Positions 2,396-16,505 of a DNA stretch of 64,000 nt are shown piece after piece. The notes below the pieces were generated by a model. The model saw only the letters and a list, made by a program, of their open reading frames with translations, ran no database searches and was not told the DNA's origin. The stretch's first letter is position 1. Each line of letters begins with the position of its first letter. The stretch lies in NCBI GenBank assembly GCA_965203175.1, contig OZ241867.1, forward strand, positions 224,001-288,000. The letters run 5' to 3'. The DNA is from Candidatus Latescibacterota bacterium. Its GTDB lineage: Bacteria > Latescibacterota > UBA2968 > UBA8231. The translations under genes were made by a program, and so were the position numbers.

Positions 2396-4624
2396 TCAGC
2401 TAAAGCGCCGCAACCGGAGCGCGTTCATCACCACCGACACCGACGAAAAGGCCATCGCGAGGCTCGCCAGCATTGGATTGAGCAGCGGACCGCCGAATAG
2501 GTAAAGTGCGCCCGCAGCCACCGGAATGCCTGCGGCGTTGTAAAAAAACGCCCAGAATAAATTCTGCTTTATGGTCCGCACAACCGCTCGGCTCAACTCA
2601 ATGGCTCGCGCCACATCCGCCAACCGGCTGTGCATGAGCACCACGGGAGCAGACGCGGCCGCCACATCCGTCCCAGTGGCAAAGGCCATACCCACATCGG
2701 CGGTGGCTAGCGCTGGCGCGTCGTTGATCCCGTCGCCGACCATGGCCACGCAGCGGCCCTCGTCCTGCAATGCCTGCACGGTCGCGGCCTTGTCTGCGGG
2801 CAAGACCTCGGCACGCACGGTCTCAATCCCCACTTGACGCGCCACGGCTTCTGCGGCCGGACGGCTGTCGCCCGTGAGCATCACCACTTCCAAGCCGCCT
2901 TGGCGCAGCCGAGCCACGTCGTCCTTGCTCTGCGGACGGGGGCGGTCGGCCAAAGACACGCGACCTACCAATGCGCCCGCCACCGCAATCCACGCGACAG
3001 TGGCACCGTCCGCCGAGTCGCTGTCTTCATCTACGCGAACTCCCACCGCCGCCATCATGGCGCGATTGCCCACCACCACATCCTCGCCTTCTACCGTGGC
3101 CTGCGCACCTTTGCCCGGACTCGCCACAACTTCGGTAGCCTCCGGCACGGCAAGGTCCCGCTCTGTTGCGGCGGCCACAATCGCCGCAGCCAGTGGATGC
3201 TCTGAGCCGCGCTCCACGGCCGCGGCCAAGCTCAGCACTTCGTCGGCGCGGCGGCCGTTTAACGGCTCTACTGCCACCACCTGCGGCCGCCCCTCGGTAA
3301 TCGTGCCGGTTTTGTCCAGCACCACGGCATCTACTTTGTGCGCTGTTTCCAGCACTTCTGGACCTTTGAACAGGATGCCTAAATGCGCGCCGCGTCCCGT
3401 ACCGACCATGATCGCGGCCGGCGTGGCCAAGCCCAAGCTGCACGGGCAGGCGATGATCAACACGGCCACAAAGACTTGCAACGCAAAGCTCAGGCCCTCC
3501 CCAGCCCATAGCCAACCCACTGCGGCCACCGCGCCTATGACTAGCACGGCCGGCACGAAATACCCAGCAATGATATCGGCTAGGCGGGCAATCGGCGCTT
3601 TACCCGCCTGCGCGGCTTCGACTAAGCGCACCATTTGCATCAGCATCGCATCCCCGGCCGTGCGCGTTGCACGCACCATGAGTGCACCCGCGCCGTTGAG
3701 GCTACCACCAGTCACAGCATCGCCCAGTTCCTTGGCCACGGGCAGCGACTCGCCGGTCAGCAGCGACTCATCCACCGTAGAGTTTCCTTCGACGACTTCG
3801 CCGTCGGCTGGAATGCGCTCGCCCGGACGCACGCGCAGGCAGTCACCCACTTCGATGGCGTCGGCCGCGATTTCCCGCTCCCCATCGTCAGTCACCAGTG
3901 CGGCCTTGTCGGGTTTGAGCCGCAGCAGGGCACCTATGGCCTCCTCGGCCCGCAACCGCGAGCGCGCTTCGAGATAGCGGCCCATTAGCATGAAGGTGAG
4001 GATCGTCGCAACCGTCGGGAAATAGGAGTCAAACGCCGCAACCGCACCCACAGCGACGGACCCCAAGCCCCAAGCGCTGTAGATCCACGCCGCAGCCGTG
4101 CCAATGGCGATGAGCGAAAACATGTTGGGTCGGCCCCGCCACAGAGCTTGTCCGCCTTCGGCGTAGATCTGGCGGCCAACCCACATCACCGGCAGCACAA
4201 ACAGCAGATGCAAAACGCCTACCCGCAGAGGATGCTGGACCAAGGACAGCGCCGGGACAACGGGTGCGGCCATCTGCTCGACCATCTCCACTGCAAAGAG
4301 CGGCAGCCAAAATACAACAGCCCAGCGAAATGACCCCGCTTGCTCGGCGAGTTCGGTCCGCTTGCGCTCCTGCCGCCTAGCCGCGCCTTCGGCTTCGGGC
4401 GTTTGCACCCGCGCCCGGAACCCCGCCTTTACCACGGCCGCCGCAATGCTTTCCTCATCCACGGCTACCGGATCAAAGCGCACGGCCATCTGCTCGGTCG
4501 CCAAGTTGACATCAGCTACTTCAACGCCGGCCAAGCCGGACACCTGCTGCTCGACCTGCCGCACGCAGCCAGCGCAGTGCATGCCCTCAATGGCGAAATG
4601 TTGCTCTCTACTGTTTGCCGTCAT
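2396..4624 (-). CDS. copA: Cu(I)-translocating P1B-type ATPase
   Basis: HMA GMHCAGC, TGES, CPC, DKTGT, SEHPL, GDGIND, YN and MAFSS motifs; ATG at 4624 has a GAGGT RBS. Confidence 0.93.
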
Positions 4625-4669
4625 GTTGCAACCTCGGAACTTGACCGACGAACCCACTCAGTACGGTGG

Positions 4670-4696
4670 TTTTCAATGCCGTCACGGGATTGAAAA
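4670..4696. promoter_or_regulatory. Inverted repeat upstream of copA (terminator or operator)
   Basis: TTTTCAAT-N11-ATTGAAAA between the temptin-like gene stop and the copA start. Confidence 0.4.
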
Positions 4697-4724
4697 ATTG
4701 CCGCGACAAGCCATTCGATCAACC

Positions 4725-5168
4725 TCAGTCGAGCGCGCCGATCAGTTTCTTGATCTGCCCCCACGTCGTCTCCTCAACCGCCGTGTCTGGCGGTGGCAGC
4801 GGCGGGGTACTCTCGGGATCGCCGGGGTGAAACGTTTCGCCTTCTGGATTGTCATCGCCCGCCACCCAAGTGCCGTCGGGGTCGCCCAACTCCGCGCCAT
4901 TAGACGCTCCATCGCCGTCGGAATCCAACGCCGCCAGCTCTGGGCCCCAAATCACGTCACCGGGTGCACCGGCTGAGGTAAGGAAGTTGGTTGCAATCTC
5001 CAAGCCAAACGGATTGAGCGGCGAACCGCCTCCAGCCGTGTGGCAGGTGTTGCAACTCACTGCGGAGCCATTGGGAACCTGTCTTACGCGCTTGCTGCGC
5101 GCAGCCGCCTCATCGACAATCACGCCGCATAAAAAGAACACGGCTACCAGCAAAACTCTCAAAGTCAT
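4725..5168 (-). CDS. Secreted temptin-like protein with CxxCH motif and C-terminal TWGxIK tail
   Basis: Signal peptide ending AAA; VPNGSAVSCNTCH, PLNPFG, DSDGDGASNGAELGDP; Pro linker; TAVEETTWGQIK; AGGAG RBS before ATG 5168. Confidence 0.75.
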   Translation of the reverse strand: MTLRVLLVAVFFLCGVIVDEAAARSKRVRQVPNGSAVSCNTCHTAGGGSPLNPFGLEIATNFLTSAGAPGDVIWGPELAALDSDGDGASNGAELGDPDGTWVAGDDNPEGETFHPGDPESTPPLPPPDTAVEETTWGQIKKLIGALD

Positions 5169-5313
5169 GGAAAATCTCCTTTCCTCGTATTCGTCGTGAG
5201 ATGTCTCGCTCTTCAGAACATGCTCACGTGCAGCACTGTAAGTCAATACAAACCCTCGCCCCACACCGCCAAATCGCGCATATTTAAAGTCCATTCCACA
5301 GGAGGCAACGCTC

Positions 5314-7134
5314 ATGTCCACCGCTCAACGTCTCGACCTAAGCGAAGTGCGGCCGCAGATTGATGTCGATCCAGCGACTTGCGTCTATCACCGGCTCGCA
5401 CCGGCCAGCGAATTTGCCGCAGGCGAGGGCCGGCCCTTTACCATTGACGGCATTCACCTCGCAGTCTTTCTCTACGAAGGCTCCTTCCACGCCGTTGACA
5501 ATCGCTGTCCGCACATGGGCTATCCCATGTCCAAAGGCAGCATCCGCGACGGAGTGCTGATTTGCCACTGGCACCACTGGGAATTTGACCTAAAGACCGG
5601 CGGCTGCCTGCTGACTTCGGGCGACGACCTGAAAGCCTTTCCCGTGGAGGTGCGCGACGACGGCTACGCATGGGTCGGCATCCCACCCGGCGAGAAGGAG
5701 GAGGCCCGCCTGCGGCTCGTGGCCCGCGGCAAGCGCGCTCTCGAACAGGGGCTCAAAGACCGCAGTTCTTTCCTCATCGCCAAAGCGGTCGCCGCACTCC
5801 GCCAAACGGGTGCCACCCCGCAGGAAATCATCCAACAGGGACTTTACTACGGCGCACACAAAACCAGCGAAGGCTGGTCGTCGGGCGTCGCCATCCTAAC
5901 CCTCGCGGCGAACATGTGGGACGACATCGCCGAGGCCGATCAAAACCTCTTTCTCGTCCACGGTCTGACCCAGATTTCGCGGCGCACCTCCGGCTCGTCG
6001 CGCCGCCAGCGCTTCCCCTTTCCCCGCGCCAATGACGACCAAGACTTGGCCACCCTCAAGCGCTGGTTTCGCACCTTTGTCGATCAGCGGCACCACGGCG
6101 CGGCCGAGCGCATCTTGCTCACCCTGCACGACCGCGACTGCGGCAAGGAAACCCTCGCGGATTTCGTCTTCACCGCGGCCACGGATTTCTACTTCACCGG
6201 CGACGGGCACGCTCTCGACTTTGCCAACAAGATGTTCGAGGCTCTCGACTATGTAGAATGGGTTGGCGCGCACGAGATCCTCCGCCCGATCGCCGTCGAT
6301 TTGGTGAGTCGCACCCGCCACGAAGAGACCTCGCGCTGGGCCGACAGCCTGCCGCTCTTAGAAAGCATTTTCGCACGCCTAGACGAGATCTGGGAGGACA
6401 ATCAGCGCAACGAAGCGACCCTCGACGTCTCCGAGTTCACCCAAGTCATGCTCGGCGACGACTTTGAACCCATCCTCGCCCGCGTCGAAGAAGCCCTGCG
6501 CGCTGGCGTGCCGCCGACCCAACTCTGCCGTGCCATGACCTATGCCAGCGCACAGCGTACCCTGCGCTTCCACCTCAAGAACGAGGGCGACTGGCACGAC
6601 GTGGCCAACATTTATTCCTACGCCCACGCCCTGTACGCGACCTTCCACTACGCCGCCAGCAAAGAGCTGTTGCGCGCCATTTTCCACGGCGCGGTCTTCC
6701 TCACCTACCTGCGCTGGCTCAACATGCCCTCCGCCCGCGTCCCGCAGCACGGGCAGAAGCTCGACGAGCACTTCGCCTCCAGTGAGGACATGCTCAAGCG
6801 CCTCGGCGAACTAGCCGATTTCCAAAAGGTCTTCGAGGCCGAAATCCTCGTCAGCCAGTACCTCGAAGAAGGACGCGACGTCGCCAAGCTCCGCCACGCC
6901 TTGGCCCACATCATGCTCCGCGAAGACGCCGAGCTGCACATGTTCCAAGTGCTCGAAGCCGCGTTCCGGCACTACGACTTGAGCGACGATCCAGAGGAAA
7001 AGCGCGTCCACCTATTGGCGGCGACCCGCTACATCACCGCGCAAAAGGTGATGAAGAACATCCTCTGGGCCACGGAAAACGCCGAGCGGCTCCAGCGCGG
7101 CGAACTGCTCAGCGAGCGCGAAGACGACGATTGA
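5314..7134 (+). CDS. Rieske [2Fe-2S] domain protein with long helical C-terminal region
   Basis: CPH...CHWHHWEFD Rieske motif; AGGAGG RBS; about 480 aa helical tail. Confidence 0.85.
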   Translation: MSTAQRLDLSEVRPQIDVDPATCVYHRLAPASEFAAGEGRPFTIDGIHLAVFLYEGSFHAVDNRCPHMGYPMSKGSIRDGVLICHWHHWEFDLKTGGCLLTSGDDLKAFPVEVRDDGYAWVGIPPGEKEEARLRLVARGKRALEQGLKDRSSFLIAKAVAALRQTGATPQEIIQQGLYYGAHKTSEGWSSGVAILTLAANMWDDIAEADQNLFLVHGLTQISRRTSGSSRRQRFPFPRANDDQDLATLKRWFRTFVDQRHHGAAERILLTLHDRDCGKETLADFVFTAATDFYFTGDGHALDFANKMFEALDYVEWVGAHEILRPIAVDLVSRTRHEETSRWADSLPLLESIFARLDEIWEDNQRNEATLDVSEFTQVMLGDDFEPILARVEEALRAGVPPTQLCRAMTYASAQRTLRFHLKNEGDWHDVANIYSYAHALYATFHYAASKELLRAIFHGAVFLTYLRWLNMPSARVPQHGQKLDEHFASSEDMLKRLGELADFQKVFEAEILVSQYLEEGRDVAKLRHALAHIMLREDAELHMFQVLEAAFRHYDLSDDPEEKRVHLLAATRYITAQKVMKNILWATENAERLQRGELLSEREDDD

Positions 7135-7140
7135 GGAGCG

Positions 7141-10986
<3,846 letters not shown>

Positions 10987-10995
10987 GGTAGCCTC

Positions 10996-12828
10996 CTACT
11001 CGTGGCCGGCGAAGGTCTCGCGCAGGCTGCCGCAACGGTACATCTGGCCGCCGAAGTAGGGATTTTGGGTCTGCATCGCCTGTTGCAGCCAAGCTGCCCC
11101 CTCGTTGTCAAAGGCCATTGGACAGTGAAAAAGATGCACTGGCCCGGCATGGACGCCCCCCTGCCGCGCCACCCGAATCAGCACCGTCGAGAGCTCAGCA
11201 AAGGCTTGGCGGGCCGCGGCGAGATCACCAGCTCCGCTGATCGCGTCTCCGATCTCCTGCGACGCCGGGTGGACCGCGAGCGTTGCGGCGGCGGCCTGTG
11301 CCCCCAACAGATCGTCCTTGCTCAACGCCTGTTGCGTGGCGAAATAGGCCGTCCAGACCGCGGACGGCGGGCCGTGCGCGTGGCCGTTTGGCTCGTCGTC
11401 GCGCTGGTCGGCCCGCGCTGGCGCATTCATCATGCTCGGCTGGGCGCGGATCTGGAGGGCACTGTCGATTTTGAACGCGCCATTGATCACCACTTGTTCT
11501 CCCTCGCGCAGACCCTCGCGGACCAAGTAGTAATCCCCAGCCCGCGGCCCGAGTACGACCTCGCGGCCCTCGTATAGGCCCTCGCCGAGCGCGACGTACA
11601 CCACGGCGCGTTTGCCCGTCAGCAGTGGTGCCGAAGCTGGCACCACCAGTGGCATCTCGCGCTCCGCCTCGTCGCCAGTGTCATACAACTCTTCGGCGCG
11701 CACTAGGGCCATGCCGCAAATGTCGCAGGCACCGGGCGCGTCGCGGACGATCTCTGGGTGCATCGGGCTGATCCACTTGCCCTTGAGCGCGGGCGACATA
11801 GCGCGCCCGTGGGCTCCGACCTCGGCTTGGGCCACGGCCCACACCAACATCCCCGGCTTCAGCCGACCTTGCTCGTTGGCCACGTTGACTCGCACGCGCA
11901 CCGTACGCGTGCGCTCGTCCAGCACTGGATCGACGAAGGATATTTGGCCGCTGAACACCTCGCCCGGATAGGCTTCGGCCGAGAATTCAACGGCCTGGCC
12001 GTAGTGGATCCAAGATATATCCGATTCGTAGGCGCGGAGTTCCAACCACAGCCGCGACAAGTCCGCAATGGTGTAAATCGGCGTCCCAGTCTGCACGTAC
12101 GCGCCCTCGCTGAGGTGCTTTTCTATCACCACGCCGCCGGTTGGCGCGTAAATCGTCAGATGGTCGGAGGCTTGGCGCTCGCGCTCGACGCGCTCGATTT
12201 GCTCCTCCTTCAGCCCGAGCAGACGCAGCTTTTCGCGCGCAGCCTCGACCGTCGCTTGCGCCGTCTGCCCAACGGACGTGCCGCTGTCAACCAAGCGCTC
12301 GCGGGCGCGCAGGGCCTGAATCAGCTCCTCTTGAGCGGTCAACAACTCGGGGCTGTAGAGATAGGCTATGTGGTCGCCCTTTTCGACTCGCACGCCCGTG
12401 TAGTCCACATACAGCCGGTCAATCCGGCCCGCTACCCAAGCGGTAATAGAGCGAACTTGCGTCTCATCTACCGCAATCTTACCGACCATCCGCGTCTCGA
12501 CCGGCGCGAAGCGGCGCTCGACCGGCGCGGTCTGGATGCTGGCAAGCTCCTGCGCGGCCGGCGAGAGACGCAACTGGCGCGGGGCCAAAATGTCGCCAGC
12601 CTCGGGCGCGGCCACCGGGATTAGGTCCATTCCGCATATTGGACAGTGACCCGGCTTAGGCTGGCGGATCTGCGGGTGCATTGAGCAGGTCCACGTTTCG
12701 CCCTGCTCGACGACTGCGGCGGGTGCATGTCCGCTGGGTGCATCCGAACCGCTCAAACCCCAGCCTACGGCCAAGCCGACGATCCCCGCCACGATACCGG
12801 TAGCTATTATTTGTTTCGTTGCTTTCAT
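10996..12828 (-). CDS. cusB: RND periplasmic adaptor (CusB family) with two heavy-metal-binding motifs and a DUF3347-like C-terminus
   Basis: WTCSMHPQI..CPICGMDL, WISPMHPEI..CDICGMAL, YSPELLTAQEE, CPMAFDNEGAAWLQ..NPYFG. Confidence 0.9.
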   Translation of the reverse strand: MKATKQIIATGIVAGIVGLAVGWGLSGSDAPSGHAPAAVVEQGETWTCSMHPQIRQPKPGHCPICGMDLIPVAAPEAGDILAPRQLRLSPAAQELASIQTAPVERRFAPVETRMVGKIAVDETQVRSITAWVAGRIDRLYVDYTGVRVEKGDHIAYLYSPELLTAQEELIQALRARERLVDSGTSVGQTAQATVEAAREKLRLLGLKEEQIERVERERQASDHLTIYAPTGGVVIEKHLSEGAYVQTGTPIYTIADLSRLWLELRAYESDISWIHYGQAVEFSAEAYPGEVFSGQISFVDPVLDERTRTVRVRVNVANEQGRLKPGMLVWAVAQAEVGAHGRAMSPALKGKWISPMHPEIVRDAPGACDICGMALVRAEELYDTGDEAEREMPLVVPASAPLLTGKRAVVYVALGEGLYEGREVVLGPRAGDYYLVREGLREGEQVVINGAFKIDSALQIRAQPSMMNAPARADQRDDEPNGHAHGPPSAVWTAYFATQQALSKDDLLGAQAAAATLAVHPASQEIGDAISGAGDLAAARQAFAELSTVLIRVARQGGVHAGPVHLFHCPMAFDNEGAAWLQQAMQTQNPYFGGQMYRCGSLRETFAGHE

Positions 12829-14084
12829 GGTTGGATTTCCTCCGTGGGTTCGCCGACCAGCTTTTCAATCTCGGCCCAATGCAAGGCTTGGTCGGTCTGC
12901 GCCCGTTCGTACGCTAGCTGGAACTCCAGCAGAGTGCGTTGGGCGTCAATGACCGCGAGAAAATCACTGCGGTCGGCGGCAAAGGCGCGCTGCGTTACGT
13001 TGAGCGCCTGTTCGGCCTTGGGCAGCAAGCTGTCCCGGTAGAGAGCACTGCGGCTTTGGGCGTCGCGCTGCTTGTACAAGGCCAGTTCCAGTTCGGCAAC
13101 GAGCCTATTCTCCTCGTCCGCAACGCCCTGCACGGCGGCCTGATGGCTCAGTTTGGCCGCGCGTTCTCCGGCCTCGTAGGACGAGCGCCACAAGGGCAGG
13201 TTGAGCGAGGCCATGGCCATCAGCGGATTCTCGCCCCGGTCGCCGATGTGGATGTAATCGAGGCTCACGGTCAGGTCCGGGTAGAACTGCTTGCCGGCCA
13301 ATTCGACGCCTAGGGACTGCGCCCGCGCTTGCGTGTGCCGCATTTGCAGCGTCGGGTTCGCGGCCTGCAAGCGCGCCTTTAGCACTTCTTCGTCTAAGTC
13401 CAACGCAGCCATGGGCAGCGAATCGGGCACAGCTATTGGCGCGGTCGCCGCGCGGCCGAGCGCCGCATTTAACCGGGCTGCGGTTGGCCGCCGCTGCTGA
13501 CGCAAGCTGCGCAGTTGATCCTCTAAGCGCCCCAATTCTACCTGCGCCTTGAGAACTGGGGCGTGCTCTCCGGTGCCGCCGCGATAGCGGGTCCGGCCTA
13601 CTTCTTCTAGGTGAGCCAACAGGCGCAAGTTGCCCTCGGTGACGGCAATGGCTCGCTCCAAAAAGTAGCAGTCGTAGTACGCGGCCTTGACCTCGAAAAT
13701 CAGCGACCGCCGAGTGGCCTCATAGCGCTGGCTCTCGACTACGGCCTCTTGCTGGGCGATCCGTCCCTTGAGGTCCAGCTTGCCCTTCCACGGGAAGGTT
13801 TGCGCCGCGCTAAAGCGCATTTCCTGCGGGCCAGTGCGCGTCTCTACCGGGCGCGCGAAATAGCCGTAGGTCAGGCGGGGATCGACCCAAGCGCTCGCCG
13901 AGGGCACCTTTGCTAGGGCGGCTTGGTAGCGCGTCAAAGCCTGCTTGAGCTTAGGGTTGTGCTGTTCAGCGTAGCGCACGTATTCCGCGAGTTCGGCACG
14001 GGAATCGAACGCTGCTTCTTCCTGCGACCAAACCGGTCCTGCGAGCAGACTAGCTAGCAGCAGGACCATTTTATTTTTGAACAT
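12825..14084 (-). CDS. TolC-family outer-membrane efflux protein
   Basis: Signal peptide, QTFPWKGKL, FYPDLTV, DFLAVIDAQRTLL; first gene of the cus operon. Confidence 0.88.
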   Translation of the reverse strand: MFKNKMVLLLASLLAGPVWSQEEAAFDSRAELAEYVRYAEQHNPKLKQALTRYQAALAKVPSASAWVDPRLTYGYFARPVETRTGPQEMRFSAAQTFPWKGKLDLKGRIAQQEAVVESQRYEATRRSLIFEVKAAYYDCYFLERAIAVTEGNLRLLAHLEEVGRTRYRGGTGEHAPVLKAQVELGRLEDQLRSLRQQRRPTAARLNAALGRAATAPIAVPDSLPMAALDLDEEVLKARLQAANPTLQMRHTQARAQSLGVELAGKQFYPDLTVSLDYIHIGDRGENPLMAMASLNLPLWRSSYEAGERAAKLSHQAAVQGVADEENRLVAELELALYKQRDAQSRSALYRDSLLPKAEQALNVTQRAFAADRSDFLAVIDAQRTLLEFQLAYERAQTDQALHWAEIEKLVGEPTEEIQP

Positions 14085-14092
14085 GCAAATAC

Positions 14093-14231
14093 TCCTCGCC
14101 GCGCGGAGATCTGGGATTCGCGCACAGACCTCCGCAAATTGAGTGGAGTGTGAGACTTAGAAGCGTCTGGAAATTTCCGGGTATGCCCTAAGCTCGGACA
14201 GCTTCTTAGGACACACTCAGTGCGGCGAGAA
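14093..14231 (-). promoter_or_regulatory. Structured intercistronic RNA sequestering the tolC Shine-Dalgarno
   Basis: In the mRNA 14231-14222 (UUCUCGCCGC) pairs with 14102-14093 (GCGGCGAGGA). Inner helices: 14103-14113/14125-14135, 14146-14152/14212-14218, 14156-14164/14201-14209. Confidence 0.65.
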
Positions 14232-14588
14232 TCAGATCAGGAAGGAGCAGTAGAGTTGGAAGAGCGGGGGATGTGGTTTGGGAATGCGGTTGGGCAGCGA
14301 CCGTAGCGCAGCCGAACGAGGCGGCAGCAAAGTGGTCGCCACTATTCCAATCGCGGGCGTTGAAACGGATGGCTGCTCGGCTGGGGGAACAAACGGAGGA
14401 GACGCGCTGTTGGATTCTGCACGCAGACAGCAACAACCCGCTTGCAGGCCCTCCTCGCCACAGGCATTGGCGACATGGCAGGGCATCGGGGCGGCCTCTG
14501 CAATAGGAGCACAGAGAACCTGCAAGCCGCTACAGGCAAAAGCCAGCAGCAGGACTAAAGACGCAGTTATGGGTCGAAAGTTTTTCAT
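14232..14588 (-). CDS. Cys-rich, Pro-tailed exported leader protein upstream of the metal efflux operon (HYC_CC_PP/DUF2946-like)
   Basis: Hydrophobic N-terminus, MPCH..C..CCC, C-terminal PKPHPPLFQLYCSFLI. Confidence 0.7.
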   Translation of the reverse strand: MKNFRPITASLVLLLAFACSGLQVLCAPIAEAAPMPCHVANACGEEGLQAGCCCLRAESNSASPPFVPPAEQPSVSTPAIGIVATTLLPPRSAALRSLPNRIPKPHPPLFQLYCSFLI

Positions 14589-14682
14589 TAGCAATCAATC
14601 GCTCGGCAGAAGGCCGAGTACGCAAATAGACTACGGACCGAATAAAGAAGTTTCAACAGAATTAGCGCAAGCGCAAAATTCG

Positions 14683-15399
14683 CTACTTGGACACCATCTT
14701 GCGCACGCCGCGCTCGTACACCACTTCGTACTCGCCCTCCGGCACCTCCATATTCCGCACGGCCAATTCGCCCATCGTCACCATTGGCTCAGACTTCAAT
14801 AGCAGTTCGTCGAACGACTCCTCGGGCGTCTTGCCGGTGGTGTCTAAGACGATTGTGCGGTTCTGATGGCTAAACAGCGACGCGGCGATTTCTTCCCCAA
14901 AGCGCGCTTTGACCTCGGCAATGTGTTCTTGGCGCACGACCGGATATTCGTGCGGGCTGTCCTGCATCCGCCGCGCGATTTCCTCGTCAGAGGCCGTTAC
15001 GTGGAATAGCACCACATCGGGCAGATGGGCCTCTAACACCAGCGATTCGTAGAGCCGCTGAAAGCCGTAGTGGAAGTTCGGGTAGTAAAAGCTATTCGGG
15101 TCGTCGCCGTAAAAACTGGTGTACACGGCCTCCTCTAAATGCCAGCCGACGATCAGCGGACAGGCGTACTTTTTGATGATGTCCACGTGGTAGTGGATCT
15201 GCATCCGCTGCCCGCGCTCCTTTATGTCGTTGGGCAGGCCGACCAAGATCTTGCGCGACTCTGGGCTGAGCGAGGCGTCGGGGAGGGTGAAGTGATCGTC
15301 GCCGTGGATGGGGACTCGCCGGTGCCGGTAGTACTCCCCAAGCATAGTGGCCAGCGTGCTTTTCCCTGCGTATTCAATACCTGCAAAAATGCTGCGCAT
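14683..15399 (-). CDS. P-loop nucleotide-kinase-like protein
   Basis: N-terminal Walker A GIEYAGKST; VLFHVTAS..IARRM lid; LDTTGKTPEE. Confidence 0.7.
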   Translation of the reverse strand: MRSIFAGIEYAGKSTLATMLGEYYRHRRVPIHGDDHFTLPDASLSPESRKILVGLPNDIKERGQRMQIHYHVDIIKKYACPLIVGWHLEEAVYTSFYGDDPNSFYYPNFHYGFQRLYESLVLEAHLPDVVLFHVTASDEEIARRMQDSPHEYPVVRQEHIAEVKARFGEEIAASLFSHQNRTIVLDTTGKTPEESFDELLLKSEPMVTMGELAVRNMEVPEGEYEVVYERGVRKMVSK

Positions 15400-15488
15400 G
15401 TCTGCTCTCCTTTGGGCTTTTCAAGACGGCGTTCTCGGATATATTCTCAAAAGTAAGTCGCCGCACATCCTCCAGCAAACGCCCGCTT

Positions 15489-16505
15489 ATGCCCGCTAGC
15501 TCTTCCAAAATCGGCGTCCTCGTCGCCCAGCTCGGCACGCCGCAAGCACCGACCGCCCGCGCCCTGCGACCCTATCTGCGCCAATTTCTCTCCGACCCGC
15601 GCGTCATCGACCTCCACCCGCTCAGGTGGTATCCCATCCTCTATCTCTTTGTCCTCACCCGCCGACCCGCGCGCTCGGCCGCCCTGTACGCCAATATCTG
15701 GACCGACAAAGGCTCGCCTCTCATGGTCCATTCCCAAGCGCAGACCCGCGGCTTGCAAGAGCGGTTGGGCGCGGCGTATCGAGTCGTGCTCGGCATGCGC
15801 TACGGCGAGCCGAGCATCAAGCGCGCCGTACAGTCCCTAGAAAGTGAAGGCATCGAGCGCATCCTCGTCTTTCCCATGTTCCCGCAGTTTTCCTGCGCCA
15901 CCACCGGCTCGATCTATGACGCGGTCAACCGCGCGGCCTTGGGCAGACGCTGCCCTTGGTTTTTCGACCGCAAACGCCAAATGCCGGTGCTGCGTTTCGT
16001 CCCTCCCTACGCAGACCATCCCGCGTACATCAACGCGCTCAAACAGTCGGTCGCCGAAGCAGTCGCCCGCCTCAGTTGGACGCCCGACCGCTACCTAATC
16101 ACTTTCCACGGCATTCCCCAACGCTACGTCGATGAAGGCGATCCATACCGCCGCCAGTGCGAAGAAACCGCGCGCCAGCTGGCCACAGCGCTTGGCCTCG
16201 CAGACGACGAGTGGGTCAGCGGCTTCCAGTCGCGCTTCGGCAAAGAGCCTTGGCTAGAGCCTTATACCGAGGAAGTCCTAGAACGCCTCGGGGGGCAGGG
16301 CGTGCGCCGCTTAGTCGCCATCTGCCCCGGCTTCACCGCCGATTGCCTCGAAACGCTCGACGAGATTGGCCGCGAAGGAGCCGAGCAATTTTCCCACGGG
16401 GGCGGCCAGCAGTTCCACTTAGTGCCCTGCCTCAACAACCACCCGGCTTGGCTCGATGCTATGGCAGCCATCGCCCGCCAAGAACTGGCCGGTTGGGATG
16501 CCTGA
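15489..16505 (+). CDS. hemH: Ferrochelatase
   Basis: QLGTP, FLSDPRV, GMRYGEP, FHGIP, FQSRFG..WLEP, DCLETLDEI, PCLN. Confidence 0.95.
   Translation: MPASSSKIGVLVAQLGTPQAPTARALRPYLRQFLSDPRVIDLHPLRWYPILYLFVLTRRPARSAALYANIWTDKGSPLMVHSQAQTRGLQERLGAAYRVVLGMRYGEPSIKRAVQSLESEGIERILVFPMFPQFSCATTGSIYDAVNRAALGRRCPWFFDRKRQMPVLRFVPPYADHPAYINALKQSVAEAVARLSWTPDRYLITFHGIPQRYVDEGDPYRRQCEETARQLATALGLADDEWVSGFQSRFGKEPWLEPYTEEVLERLGGQGVRRLVAICPGFTADCLETLDEIGREGAEQFSHGGGQQFHLVPCLNNHPAWLDAMAAIARQELAGWDA

Follow-up and report, generated by a model that had tools for sequence, protein, structure and literature searches.

A conserved leader ORF and a stop-adjacent anti-Shine-Dalgarno helix that may gate a Cus-like efflux operon in a sponge-associated Latescibacterota bacterium

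Judged by analogy, the closest established precedent for the locus described here is CutF of Rhodobacter capsulatus (cutFOG operon), not CruR. According to PMC9973294, CutF combines a Sec signal peptide, a Cys motif and a C-terminal stalling motif with a stem-loop that shields the next gene's Shine-Dalgarno (SD) site, and it is metal-induced stalling, not release from it, that opens the stem-loop. This logic has been established experimentally (PMC9973294; bioRxiv 10.1101/2025.02.05.636593). According to the bioinformatic analysis reported in PMC9973294, the gene that most often follows CutF-like ORFs encodes an RND outer-membrane protein, and the same source classes CusD, SilD and CzcI of Cupriavidus metallidurans as CutF-like, CzcI being said to have no C-terminal proline motif. 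CruR (DUF2946) carries its C-terminal RAPP motif about three residues before the end (PMC9426467). A sequence-only reading of the present locus had invoked CruR as a stalling upstream ORF of the DUF2946 type, which agrees with its description in PMC9426467. Since CutF-like ORFs upstream of RND outer-membrane genes have already been described, the idea is less new than that reading assumed.

The host is an uncultured sponge-associated Latescibacterota bacterium. We analyzed a stretch of 64,000 nt of its genome (the window), and all the features described are located on the minus strand. The leader ORF and the genes that follow it are listed below.

14232..14588, minus strand: leader ORF, 118 aa plus stop (ATG at 14588, stop TGA at 14234-14232)
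12825..14084, minus strand: outer-membrane efflux protein, CusC/TolC-like, 419 aa (Pfam OEP, E = 1.3e-42)
10996..12828, minus strand: membrane-fusion protein, CusB-like (HlyD_D23, 5.8e-73; HMBD, 1.8e-25, two stretches)
7141..10986, minus strand: CusA/CzcA-family RND pump, 1281 aa (TIGR00914, 745.6 bits against a cut-off of 701)

The start of the cusB-like gene overlaps the stop of the outer-membrane gene by 4 nt, and the RND pump gene begins 9 nt past the cusB-like stop. The CusB-like protein has two heavy-metal-binding domains, and its RND_mfp score exceeds the cut-off. The closest solved structure to the pump is E. coli CusA (588 bits; ZneA, 397 bits). In the alignment with CusA, the pump has Met at chain positions 580 and 679 and also in the ISMIET/LEMVET segment; we take these positions to be the three-methionine metal site of CusA (Met573, Met623 and Met672). 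As far as sequence comparison can tell, the pump is a Cus-type (Cu/Ag) HME-RND protein, closer to CusA than to a divalent-cation pump. Thus, the proposal that the leader heads a Cus efflux operon agrees with the CusA-type heavy-metal efflux genes that follow it. OEP is also the next gene in all 8 divergent loci tested. A family scan revealed no CusF-type gene in the operon. The earlier remark that no metalloregulator is visible in the island was borne out as well: the MerR, CsoR, ArsR and two-component families had no match among the window's 52 ORFs with a length of 80 aa or more. In the host genome (93% complete) we found no CsoR, and no CueR above the cut-off. RNA-library contigs of relatives (~92-94% identical; three runs from two studies) span the leader, the spacer and the start of the outer-membrane gene. 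We set them aside as proof of co-transcription, DNA carry-over being possible in the libraries, and gave them no weight because such contigs cannot show a single transcript or transcript ends.

The leader consists of a signal-peptide-like N-terminus, a Cys cluster, a poorly conserved Pro-rich linker and an invariant C-terminus, with the following segments mapped.

14493..14588, minus strand: residues 1-32, with a basic n-region (K2, R5), a hydrophobic core SLVLLLAFAC and an AEA-type cleavage-like site
14427..14480, minus strand: Cys cluster C37-H38, C43, C52-C53-C54, a putative soft-metal site
14235..14270, minus strand: P107-x-LFQLYCSFLI118, the invariant C-terminal peptide abutting the stop, a candidate arrest peptide

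The search for homologues of the leader yielded 60 sequences, and a set of 1.84 billion proteins, clustered at 50% identity, included 18 representatives; the sequences obtained fall into some seven groups. In its own genome the gene is present in a single copy. Family members are 116-134 aa long, except for one 193-aa call with a long N-terminal extension, and the annotation of many relatives starts at Met35, which makes them 82-85 aa long. In 18 of 20 family members, a net-positive n-region precedes a 10-aa core whose mean Kyte-Doolittle value is at least 2.0; one of the two misses reaches 1.82 and the other has a mis-called start. In the wide alignment of 20 members, C37, C52 and C53 are invariant and C54 is nearly so. 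Of the earlier description as an exported Cys-rich ORF, the conserved ORF, the Cys cluster and the signal-peptide-like N-terminus therefore stand, and the basic N-terminus with its hydrophobic core suggests export itself. A lipoprotein reading of the N-terminus was rejected, as Cys19 is unconserved and the lipobox non-canonical. The distance from the end of the CCC triad to the C-terminus is 62-66 residues in 66 of 77 proteins, despite the poorly conserved linker. As had been reported, the 118-aa ORF read on the minus strand terminates in PKPHPPLFQLYCSFLI. Its last 10 codons show no non-synonymous changes in 27 sequences, with synonymous variation at 9 of the 10 positions, and L109, F110, L117 and I118 are invariant down to ~30% identity. 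Positions 113 and 114 are Y/H and C/H throughout the family and might be metal ligands. Judging from these patterns of conservation, the leader is a real gene under peptide-level selection. Apart from a CD59 match (E = 0.012) that we attribute to chance, neither the leader nor 14 relatives matched any Pfam or NCBIfam family. In the ESM Atlas the nearest clusters are unnamed, and the nearest named ones are DUF6769, DUF8199 and DUF6660 of Bacteroidota (scores 0.93-0.94), which we treat as leads only.

Like CutF, the leader is a small ORF heading a copper-defence operon, with a putative Sec-type N-terminus and a Cys motif whose distance to a C-terminal motif beside the stop is fixed; like other CutF-like ORFs, it has an RND outer-membrane gene downstream. 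With 118 aa, a P107-P108 pair within the last 15 residues and a 147-nt gap to the OEP gene, the window leader agrees with three rules of the CutF-like rule set of PMC9973294 (<150 aa, PP within the last 15 residues, and the gap criterion); the set also asks for an N-terminal signal peptide, which the leader may have, and was built by iterative jackhmmer searches from CutF seeds. However, its Cys pattern is CX5C plus CCC, whereas that of CutF is CxxxC, and the distance from Cys to the end is ~64 residues compared with 45 in CutF. The PPP staller of CutF has as its counterpart an invariant peptide of 10-12 residues in which Pro-Pro is dispensable: relatives show PL, PR, PQ, AP, VS and PD at this place. 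Moreover, CutF precedes a multicopper oxidase and the leader an efflux pump. Like CruR (Bp2923 of Bordetella pertussis), the leader is an upstream ORF that contains Cys residues and, at a conserved distance from them, an arrest-type motif at the C-terminus; a long spacer and a link to copper-related genes are further common points. CruR differs in having CXXC and RAPP, in using Rho-dependent termination with a stall that copper relieves and a signal peptide that is dispensable, and in its target, an uptake receptor turned off by copper (PMC9426467). RAPP does not occur in any member of the leader family, consistent with the variant without this motif that had been suggested, and a conserved CXXC is absent, the pattern being C37-x5-C43 plus C52-C53-C54. 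The DUF2946 model (PF11162, gathering score 23.7 bits) had no match in the window ORF or 14 relatives at E up to 10. A six-frame search of the leader's own genome gave a best score of 15.7 bits, below the cut-off and at other loci, and none of 168 genomes of the phylum contained a match above the cut-off. Compared by description, CusD, SilD and CzcI are likewise small ORFs directly upstream of heavy-metal RND operons, but they are proteobacterial and lie within the DUF2946-related network. In the supplementary files of PMC9973294 other than the protein list (File S1), neither Latescibacter nor the motif had a match. Set apart from CutF-like proteins by motif descriptions and the DUF2946 HMM, the leader family looks like a new sequence family using the known CutF-type logic.

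Two features were mapped upstream of the leader.

14651..14656, minus strand: TTGAAA, a -35-like hexamer kept upstream of the leader in relatives
14602..14618, minus strand: small hairpin CTCGGC-cttct-GCCGAG, 13 nt upstream of the leader ATG

Most related loci have the sequence GTTGAAAC, or a variant of it with one or two base changes, ahead of the leader, including loci with another upstream gene, and the TTGAAA hexamer is a possible promoter of the operon. A scan of positions 13900-15600 for consensus sigma-70 promoters found none on the minus strand, neither at the hexamer nor in the spacer, where a separate promoter had been named beforehand as evidence against leader control; the consensus may not be the promoter type of this phylum, hence the null is weak. 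The small hairpin is kept in relatives with changes in both arms (for example, TTGGCC..GACCAAG), as judged by eye. None of GGAG, GAGG and AGGA occurs ahead of the leader ATG, so that the leader has no SD-like motif; one of these motifs is present at 22 of 42 crude gene starts in the window.

The end of the leader and the start of the outer-membrane gene are joined by a predicted helix, hereafter the clamp, formed by the first two of the following elements.

14222..14231, minus strand: 5' arm of the clamp (anti-SD), TTCTCGCCGC, beginning at the first base past the leader stop
14093-14102, minus strand: 3' arm of the clamp, GCGGCGAGGA, overlapping the SD GAGGAG (14092-14097) of the outer-membrane gene
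14103..14135, minus strand: hairpin GCGGAGGTCTG...CAGATCTCCGC adjoining the SD arm, 12 pairs
14057..14067, minus strand: GGTCCTGCTGC, codons 6-10 of the outer-membrane gene, an alternative partner of the SD arm in constrained folding

The claim that the 10 nt past the stop pair with the SD region was confirmed on the sequence: TTCTCGCCGC and GCGGCGAGGA form nine Watson-Crick pairs and one G-U pair. The 3' arm takes in all but the last base of the GAGGAG SD, which stands 7 nt upstream of the ATG at 14084, and the partners of the SD core are the first six bases of the 5' arm. The pairing is indeed long-range, but the gap between the arms is 119 nt, not the ~130 nt given earlier. RNAfold assigned -62.6 kcal/mol to region 14070-14245 of the minus strand (z = -4.43; 0 of 200 shuffles fold as well), and the MFE and centroid structures both contain the clamp helix. 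It encloses a long-range stem with two small hairpins and a terminal hairpin, which is roughly the set of three additional helices noted before. The hairpin adjoining the SD arm has changes on both sides at 5 of its 12 pairs, with 82% of cells paired, and could stack on the clamp. As in CutF, RNA structure in the spacer would shield the SD of the next gene; unlike in CutF, the helix of the clamp bridges a long range, 90-187 nt. Because its 5' arm starts at the first base past the stop, the ribosome that acts on it should sit at the stop codon.

With a ribosome modelled at the stop, the mean opening energy of the ribosome-binding site in 28 spacers of the genus decreases from 19.3 to 13.4 kcal/mol. 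The corresponding change in 150 background gene pairs is -0.04 +/- 1.33 (95th percentile 2.1), and none of the 150 reaches the genus mean of 5.9. Among the genus spacers, 25 of 28 gain more than 2.1 kcal/mol, as do 5 of 9 divergent ones. The idea that a ribosome at the leader stop melts the anti-SD helix is thus supported by the model for most of the genus, but for the window's own sequence the predicted switch is weak (15.7 to 14.7, a gain of 1.0 kcal/mol). It is likewise weak in relatives L003 and L022 (gain 1.5), and in the L025-type subgroup a ribosome at the stop brings no predicted gain. When the 5' arm of the window is blocked, constrained folding predicts that the SD arm re-pairs with codons 6-10 of the outer-membrane gene, and we attribute the small predicted switch of the window to this re-pairing with GGTCCTGCTGC. 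The outcome also depends on ribosome position. A ribosome on Pro107/Pro108 raises the predicted unpaired probability of the SD from 0.17 to 0.21, compared with 0.34 for a ribosome at the stop; one paused on Pro107-Pro108, 10 codons upstream of the stop, is therefore predicted not to reach the helix. The placement of the anti-SD arm at the first base past the stop, together with the invariant last ten residues, points to a pause at termination rather than at polyproline, and such a pause would be metal-dependent. We know of no arrest motif that resembles LFQLYCSFLI, and the C-terminal motif strings had no match in the literature searched.

Our preferred reading, in which we place even credence, is that a CutF-type cis-acting leader gates translation of the Cus-like Cu(I)/Ag(I) efflux operon. 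It builds on the observed peptide conservation, spacing, clamp and operon context, and it presumes that the leader is exported, binds metal and causes arrest, as well as the direction in which the system responds. From the leader-controlled metal switch proposed earlier it thus keeps the conserved leader, the clamp and the efflux operon as firm parts, with stalling, metal binding and export as presumed ones. The direction is reversed: release of stalling had been thought to switch efflux on, but in CutF, as described in PMC9973294, stalling itself opens the stem-loop. In the off state, the 10 nt past the leader stop would pair with the SD of the outer-membrane gene, which would initiate poorly, as would the tightly coupled cusB-like and cusA-like genes. 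The leader, having no SD, would be translated at a low level and exported co-translationally via Sec. With the ribosome at the last codons, the Cys triad, which lies 62-66 residues before the C-terminus, would be just out on the periplasmic side. Metal bound to the Cys cluster would weaken the pull on the nascent chain, and P-x-LFQLYCSFLI would then hold the ribosome at or next to the stop codon. There it would cover and unwind the 5' arm and free the SD, allowing time for initiation, or for re-initiation by the same ribosome. When no metal is bound, termination would be fast and the clamp would re-form.

Parts of this scheme are familiar from other leaders. SecM, VemP and MifM are exported leaders in which a C-terminal arrest opens an SD-hiding stem-loop and pulling by the translocon releases the arrest; they monitor secretion capacity and control secA, secDF2 and yidC2, respectively. 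They share with the proposed leader the export and an arrest near the C-terminus that frees the next SD, but their arrest sequences are unrelated to LFQLYCSFLI and they have no metal-binding cluster. In TnaC, the nascent peptide together with tryptophan sensed in the tunnel causes arrest with the stop codon in the A site, and the output is Rho anti-termination. Arrest at the stop codon by a conserved nascent peptide and a small ligand is what TnaC would have in common with the leader; unlike the leader, it has neither export nor an SD clamp. All four are named in the discussion of PMC9973294. A tentative extension, which may well prove wrong, is that P-x-LFQLYCSFLI-stop is an unrecognised arrest peptide acting at the termination step, evolved within Latescibacterota independently of the DUF2946 RAPP/PPP stallers, and coupling soft-metal sensing to clamp opening. 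The clamp would then be opened by occupancy of the periplasmic CCC or, in a bolder version, by metal ligation in the tunnel by the Tyr/His-Cys/His pair. This pair would be located five to six residues from the peptidyl-transferase centre. If true, the sensing of metal across the membrane by a nascent chain would have been invented convergently, and its arrest chemistry would be new.

The strongest alternative, though a fairly unlikely one, is plain translational coupling without sensing, with the leader product acting as a periplasmic soft-metal-binding protein, a chaperone or buffer that stands in for CusF. For this, the clamp and its stop-adjacent position suffice, and the invariant Cys cluster, an operon in which no CusF-type gene was seen and the possible metal ligands at positions 113/114 (Y/H, C/H) would all be in keeping with such a protein. 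Its invariant C-terminus would serve the protein itself in partner binding, in anchoring or as a degradation tag. However, the 50-residue linker is poorly conserved and yet held in length (62-66 residues to the end), which fits a ruler better than a folded domain. The missing SD would be odd for a stoichiometric partner, and the analogue CutF is reported to work only in cis and to be degraded after export (PMC9973294).

A second alternative concerns the spacer between the leader and the OEP gene, which is 147 nt long in the window and 90-187 nt in relatives.

14136..14221, minus strand: variable spacer interior, with short-repeat insertions in relatives
14136-14157, minus strand: conserved C-rich, G-poor tract AGTCTCACACTCCACTCAATTT inside the spacer interior

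The richest 30-nt stretch of the spacer contains 13 C and 3 G, and the tract AGTCTCACACTCCACTCAATTT is a possible Rho loading site. In L020 and L021 the spacer interior is wholly replaced, with other C-rich repeats in its place. All this would suit a CruR-like transcriptional attenuation, in which the leader ribosome sets the access of Rho to the C-rich spacer and transcription terminates prematurely before the outer-membrane gene; CruR acts in this way across a 162-nt spacer (PMC9426467). The clamp would help by keeping the outer-membrane gene untranslated. We regard attenuation as improbable: as a rut site the tract would be short, the predicted fold has the spacer heavily base-paired, and conservation is strongest in the SD clamp rather than in the tract.

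Loss of the helix in relatives had been named beforehand as an outcome that would count against gating by the leader, but the clamp is retained in all 25 close relatives while spacer length varies. In the RNAalifold consensus of the 25 spacers it is the only element kept, with 99% of its cells paired compared with 46-57% for slid partners, and its 5' arm persists despite complete turnover of the spacer interior. Within the 25-sequence alignment, 14 of the 17 non-standard cells of the 5' arm are C/U exchanges opposite G, at four positions, and still pair. The other three are unpaired and result from a misaligned 3-nt insertion in L021 and a change in the 3' arm of L014. In L021 a T-to-G change in the 3' arm corresponds to the insertion, so that 11 pairs follow one another without a break. 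The 3' arm is invariant at 8 of 10 positions, and no pair of the clamp has changes on both sides in this alignment. The fold (z = -4.43) and the conservation of the helix speak for the clamp; double-sided changes do not. Within the genus, the clamp could be one inherited event kept by selection.

In 39 of 41 distinct spacers the MFE structure pairs stop-adjacent bases with the initiation region. However, six or more such pairs also occur in 108 of 400 random gene pairs (27%), and because of this genomic null we dropped the count as evidence and relied instead on tests of duplex energy and of ribosome constraint, each set against background. In this GC-rich RNA, shuffling the mononucleotides of the 5' arm had little discriminating power. 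The duplex of the stop-adjacent and SD arms has an energy of -25.0 kcal/mol. Compared with 816 co-directional gene pairs from this genome, it falls at the 0.1 percentile; since only 0.1% of these pairs reach it, the clamp is more than chance. A top stop-adjacent anti-SD match of the background, a ParA-like gene followed by a sigma-54 activator, is unrelated and was dropped. It is very unlikely that the helix is a structural or stability element (spacer closure or a processing site) with no role in initiation, an incidental SD overlap and separately conserved arms: common end-to-end MFE pairing (27% of random gene pairs), a 3' arm expected to be conserved as an SD anyway and a clamp with no double compensatory change would fit it, but the 0.1-percentile duplex energy, the survival of the 5' arm through full interior turnover, the 14 of 17 exchanges that keep pairing and a ribosome-dependent opening beyond the 95th background percentile in 25 of 28 genus spacers argue against it.

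Divergent relatives show weaker, partial signs of the clamp layout, with a duplex that is modestly unusual. The fraction of background pairs at least as stable is 0.054 for both L037 and L039, 0.154 for L035 and 0.201 for L038, and it is ~0.5 for L036, L033 and L034. In the L025-type subgroup, the partner of the stop-adjacent arm is the start-codon region rather than the SD.

Metal sensing by a nascent exported leader (CutF, CruR) is a concept only a few years old, demonstrated in two proteobacteria. The present locus suggests that the same logic works in an uncultured, sponge-associated candidate phylum, in a leader family that the DUF2946 model does not detect and that precedes a tripartite Cu/Ag efflux pump. 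With the anti-SD arm at the first base past the stop and the last ten residues invariant, the locus is an unusually clean experimental design, and a termination pause, if real, could extend the short list of arrest sequences by a new one. Since annotation misses such leaders, calling them as 82-85-aa proteins from Met35, copper regulation is under-counted in environmental genomes.

The leader (118 aa, minus strand, ATG at 14588, TGA at 14234-14232, C-terminal end PKPHPPLFQLYCSFLI) is separated by a spacer of 147 nt from the first of three pump genes, and the region 2396-7134 beyond them looks like a copper island:

12825-14084, minus strand, outer-membrane efflux protein (Pfam OEP, 1.3e-42)
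10996-12828, minus strand, membrane-fusion protein with two heavy-metal-binding domains; its start overlaps the outer-membrane gene stop by 4 nt
7141-10986, minus strand, RND pump of 1281 aa, beginning 9 nt past the membrane-fusion gene stop
5314-7134, plus strand, divergent 606-aa protein with a Rieske domain
4725-5321, minus strand, Temptin_C-domain protein, just upstream of the P1B ATPase
2396-4657, minus strand, copper-type P1B ATPase, part of the copper-island-like region

The RND pump passes the CusA/CzcA family model (745.6 bits, cut-off 701) and its similarity to E. coli CusA (588 bits) far exceeds that to the zinc pump ZneA (397 bits). Its methionines align at what we take to be the three-methionine Cu(I)/Ag(I) site of CusA, and the copper-type ATPase lies on the same strand, 2.5 kb downstream. 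The label 'Cus-like' is therefore fair. Solved CusA has about 1050 aa; in the longer pump found here the matched stretches are 44-517, 683-760 and 842-1265, which leaves two inserts, one of roughly 165 and one of roughly 80 residues, unmatched. In the membrane-fusion protein (610 aa) the metal-binding domains are N-terminal, and a C-terminal extension weakly matches DUF3347 (E = 0.0022). The sequence-only reading had seen no metalloregulator, and indeed none of 52 ORFs of the window matched a regulator family. In the 93%-complete genome, searches for CsoR and CueR returned no CsoR and no CueR above the cut-off.

Sixty homologues of the leader were found, and when 1.84 billion representatives were searched exhaustively with a profile, only 18 clusters matched. 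The gene is single-copy and present in 35 of the 168 Latescibacterota genomes, including 27 of the 30 genomes of the window's genus, 6 of the 8 of the sister genus and one elsewhere. Family invariants are C37, C52, C53, L109, F110, L117 and I118, with C54 nearly invariant, and a basic n-region followed by a hydrophobic core is present in 18 of 20 members. Sequence conservation is poor in the linker from the Cys triad to the C-terminus, but 66 of the 77 proteins compared have a linker length of 62-66 residues, the exceptions being mostly pattern-match artefacts, plus two frameshifted entries. The last 12 residues show essentially no variation within the genus. Among 27 DNA sequences the last ten codons show no amino-acid change and synonymous variation at nine of the ten positions, so it is the peptide rather than the RNA that is constrained. 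The leader is a genuine gene whose peptide is under selection. In the databases, about half of its relatives are called from Met35 as 82-85-aa proteins and so lose the signal-peptide-like N-terminus; two database entries (P0059, P0061) have a frameshift near the 3' end.

No SD-like motif precedes the leader, and all three pump genes have an SD. Upstream of the leader (14602-14656, minus strand) most relatives keep GTTGAAAC, or a variant of one or two bases, and a small hairpin directly before the ATG in which both arms vary; both persist even with a different upstream gene. RNA-library contigs of relatives from two studies (X16, X17) stop at the same position, 15377, which falls 22 nt into a 238-aa upstream ORF as counted from its crude start; one contig carries adapter sequence there. 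In relatives, transcripts may begin at this position.

Nine Watson-Crick pairs and one G-U pair join the 10 nt past the leader stop, TTCTCGCCGC (14231-14222), to GCGGCGAGGA (14102-14093), as first read from the sequence. This clamp covers GAGGA, all but the last base of the outer-membrane gene SD (GAGGAG), which lies 7 nt upstream of the start codon. RNAfold, a check proposed with the original claim, gave -62.6 kcal/mol (z = -4.43) for the spacer region, with the helix in both the MFE and centroid structures. That claim also hung on conservation of the helix, which is kept in the window and 24 close loci: spacer length ranges from 90 to 187 nt through short-repeat insertions, and the interior is wholly replaced in two loci (L020, L021), but the 5' arm at the first base past the stop and the SD arm occur in 25 of 25. 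The clamp is the sole element retained by RNAalifold, its cells being 99% paired versus 46-57% with partners slid by 1-3 columns. Fourteen cells at four 5'-arm positions are C/U exchanges opposite G; the three unpaired cells come from a misaligned 3-nt insertion in L021 and a 3'-arm change in L014. The L021 insertion is accompanied by a T-to-G change opposite, which gives a longer helix. In the 25-spacer alignment no outer-helix pair has changes on both sides, as expected because one arm is the SD, but a second hairpin adjoining the SD arm has five such pairs.

Short repeats, C-rich or G-rich (units of the CTGACCA/CCACTGA type, and the complements of these), are concentrated in the spacer interior, which they lengthen or wholly replace while both clamp arms stay (L001:3361-3545, L003:3361-3547, L020:3292-3385, L021:3358-3459). 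The interior also holds AGTCTCACACTCCACTCAATTT (14136-14157, minus strand), a C-rich, G-poor element that hardly varies in 22 of 25 close relatives. This near-invariance is not accounted for by the clamp; the element may serve for Rho loading, act as a second anti-SD (ACTCC against GGAGT) or bind a protein.

In 39 of 41 distinct spacers the MFE structure joins stop-adjacent bases to the initiation region. We dropped this count as support: when random co-directional gene pairs of the window's genome are folded as isolated stop-to-start segments, which tend toward end-to-end closure, the ends also pair in 27% of them by at least 6 pairs and in 11.5% by at least 10. Sightings of an 'anti-SD after the stop' thus require a genomic null, and because the MFE null is high we used two other tests. 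In the first, the stop-adjacent 24 nt were paired with the initiation region; 0.1% of 816 co-directional gene pairs of the same genome gave a duplex as stable as that of the window. Expressed as the background fraction at least as stable, the result was 0.001 for the window, 0.013 and 0.001 for two divergent members of its genus, 0.054, 0.054, 0.154 and 0.201 for loci of other lineages with different arm sequences (L037, L039, L035 and L038), and about 0.5 for three lineages. In the second, bases under a ribosome with the stop codon in the A site were blocked and opening energies of the initiation region compared. The energy dropped by 5.9 kcal/mol on average in 28 genus spacers, versus -0.04 +/- 1.33 in 150 background pairs (95th percentile 2.1; none at least 5.9), and the gain exceeded 2.1 in 25 of 28 genus and 5 of 9 divergent spacers. 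In the L025-type subgroup stop-adjacent bases pair with the start-codon region, not the SD, and no gain is predicted. These tests thus give the clamp layout strong support within the window's genus and suggestive support outside it.

One result speaks against the simple form of the proposal that a ribosome at the leader stop melts the anti-SD helix: for the window's own sequence the model predicts a gain of just 1.0 kcal/mol (from 15.7 to 14.7). Blocking the 5' arm gives the SD arm a new predicted partner, GGTCCTGCTGC (14057-14067), which lies in codons 6-10 of the outer-membrane gene. Either kinetics would dominate (SD capture on release, or re-initiation by the terminating ribosome), or the window copy would be a weak switch. 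Modelling the ribosome on Pro107 or Pro108 leaves the unpaired SD fraction nearly unchanged (0.17 to 0.21), whereas at the stop it rises from 0.17 to 0.34. The Pro-Pro pair varies within the family; the ten residues that a stop-codon pause would place in the upper exit tunnel do not. Together these observations point to a predicted pause at or next to termination.

The precedent originally invoked, CruR, does regulate by a stall: CXXC and RAPP define its family (Pfam DUF2946), which acts via Rho, copper relieving the stall (PMC9426467). CutF of Rhodobacter capsulatus is closer; Cu-induced stalling there melts a stem-loop shielding the cutO SD (PMC9973294; bioRxiv 10.1101/2025.02.05.636593). 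Its authors list 5,334 'CutF-like' proteins, whose commonest downstream neighbour is given as an RND outer-membrane protein (PMC9973294). This type of system is therefore already known, and the sequence-only reading was correct in outline but less novel than its author thought. The leader family nevertheless differs from both: it has no PF11162 match even at E = 10, its motifs are not those of CruR or CutF, and its clamp, unlike that of CutF, is a long-range helix anchored at the stop. The C-terminal motif was not found in the literature searched. No phylum genome searched has a PF11162 match above the cut-off. At a different locus of a congener genome (L044; G142:C1:3468259-3468543, minus strand), a 117-aa ORF matches almost the full DUF2946 model at 22.4 bits (cut-off 23.7) and may be a genuine DUF2946-like leader in the window's genus.

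Plain translational coupling, the main rival, seems to us rather improbable. The most likely mechanism, on which we remain evenly divided, is a CutF-like pause, probably at termination, in which the paused ribosome would open the anti-SD clamp.
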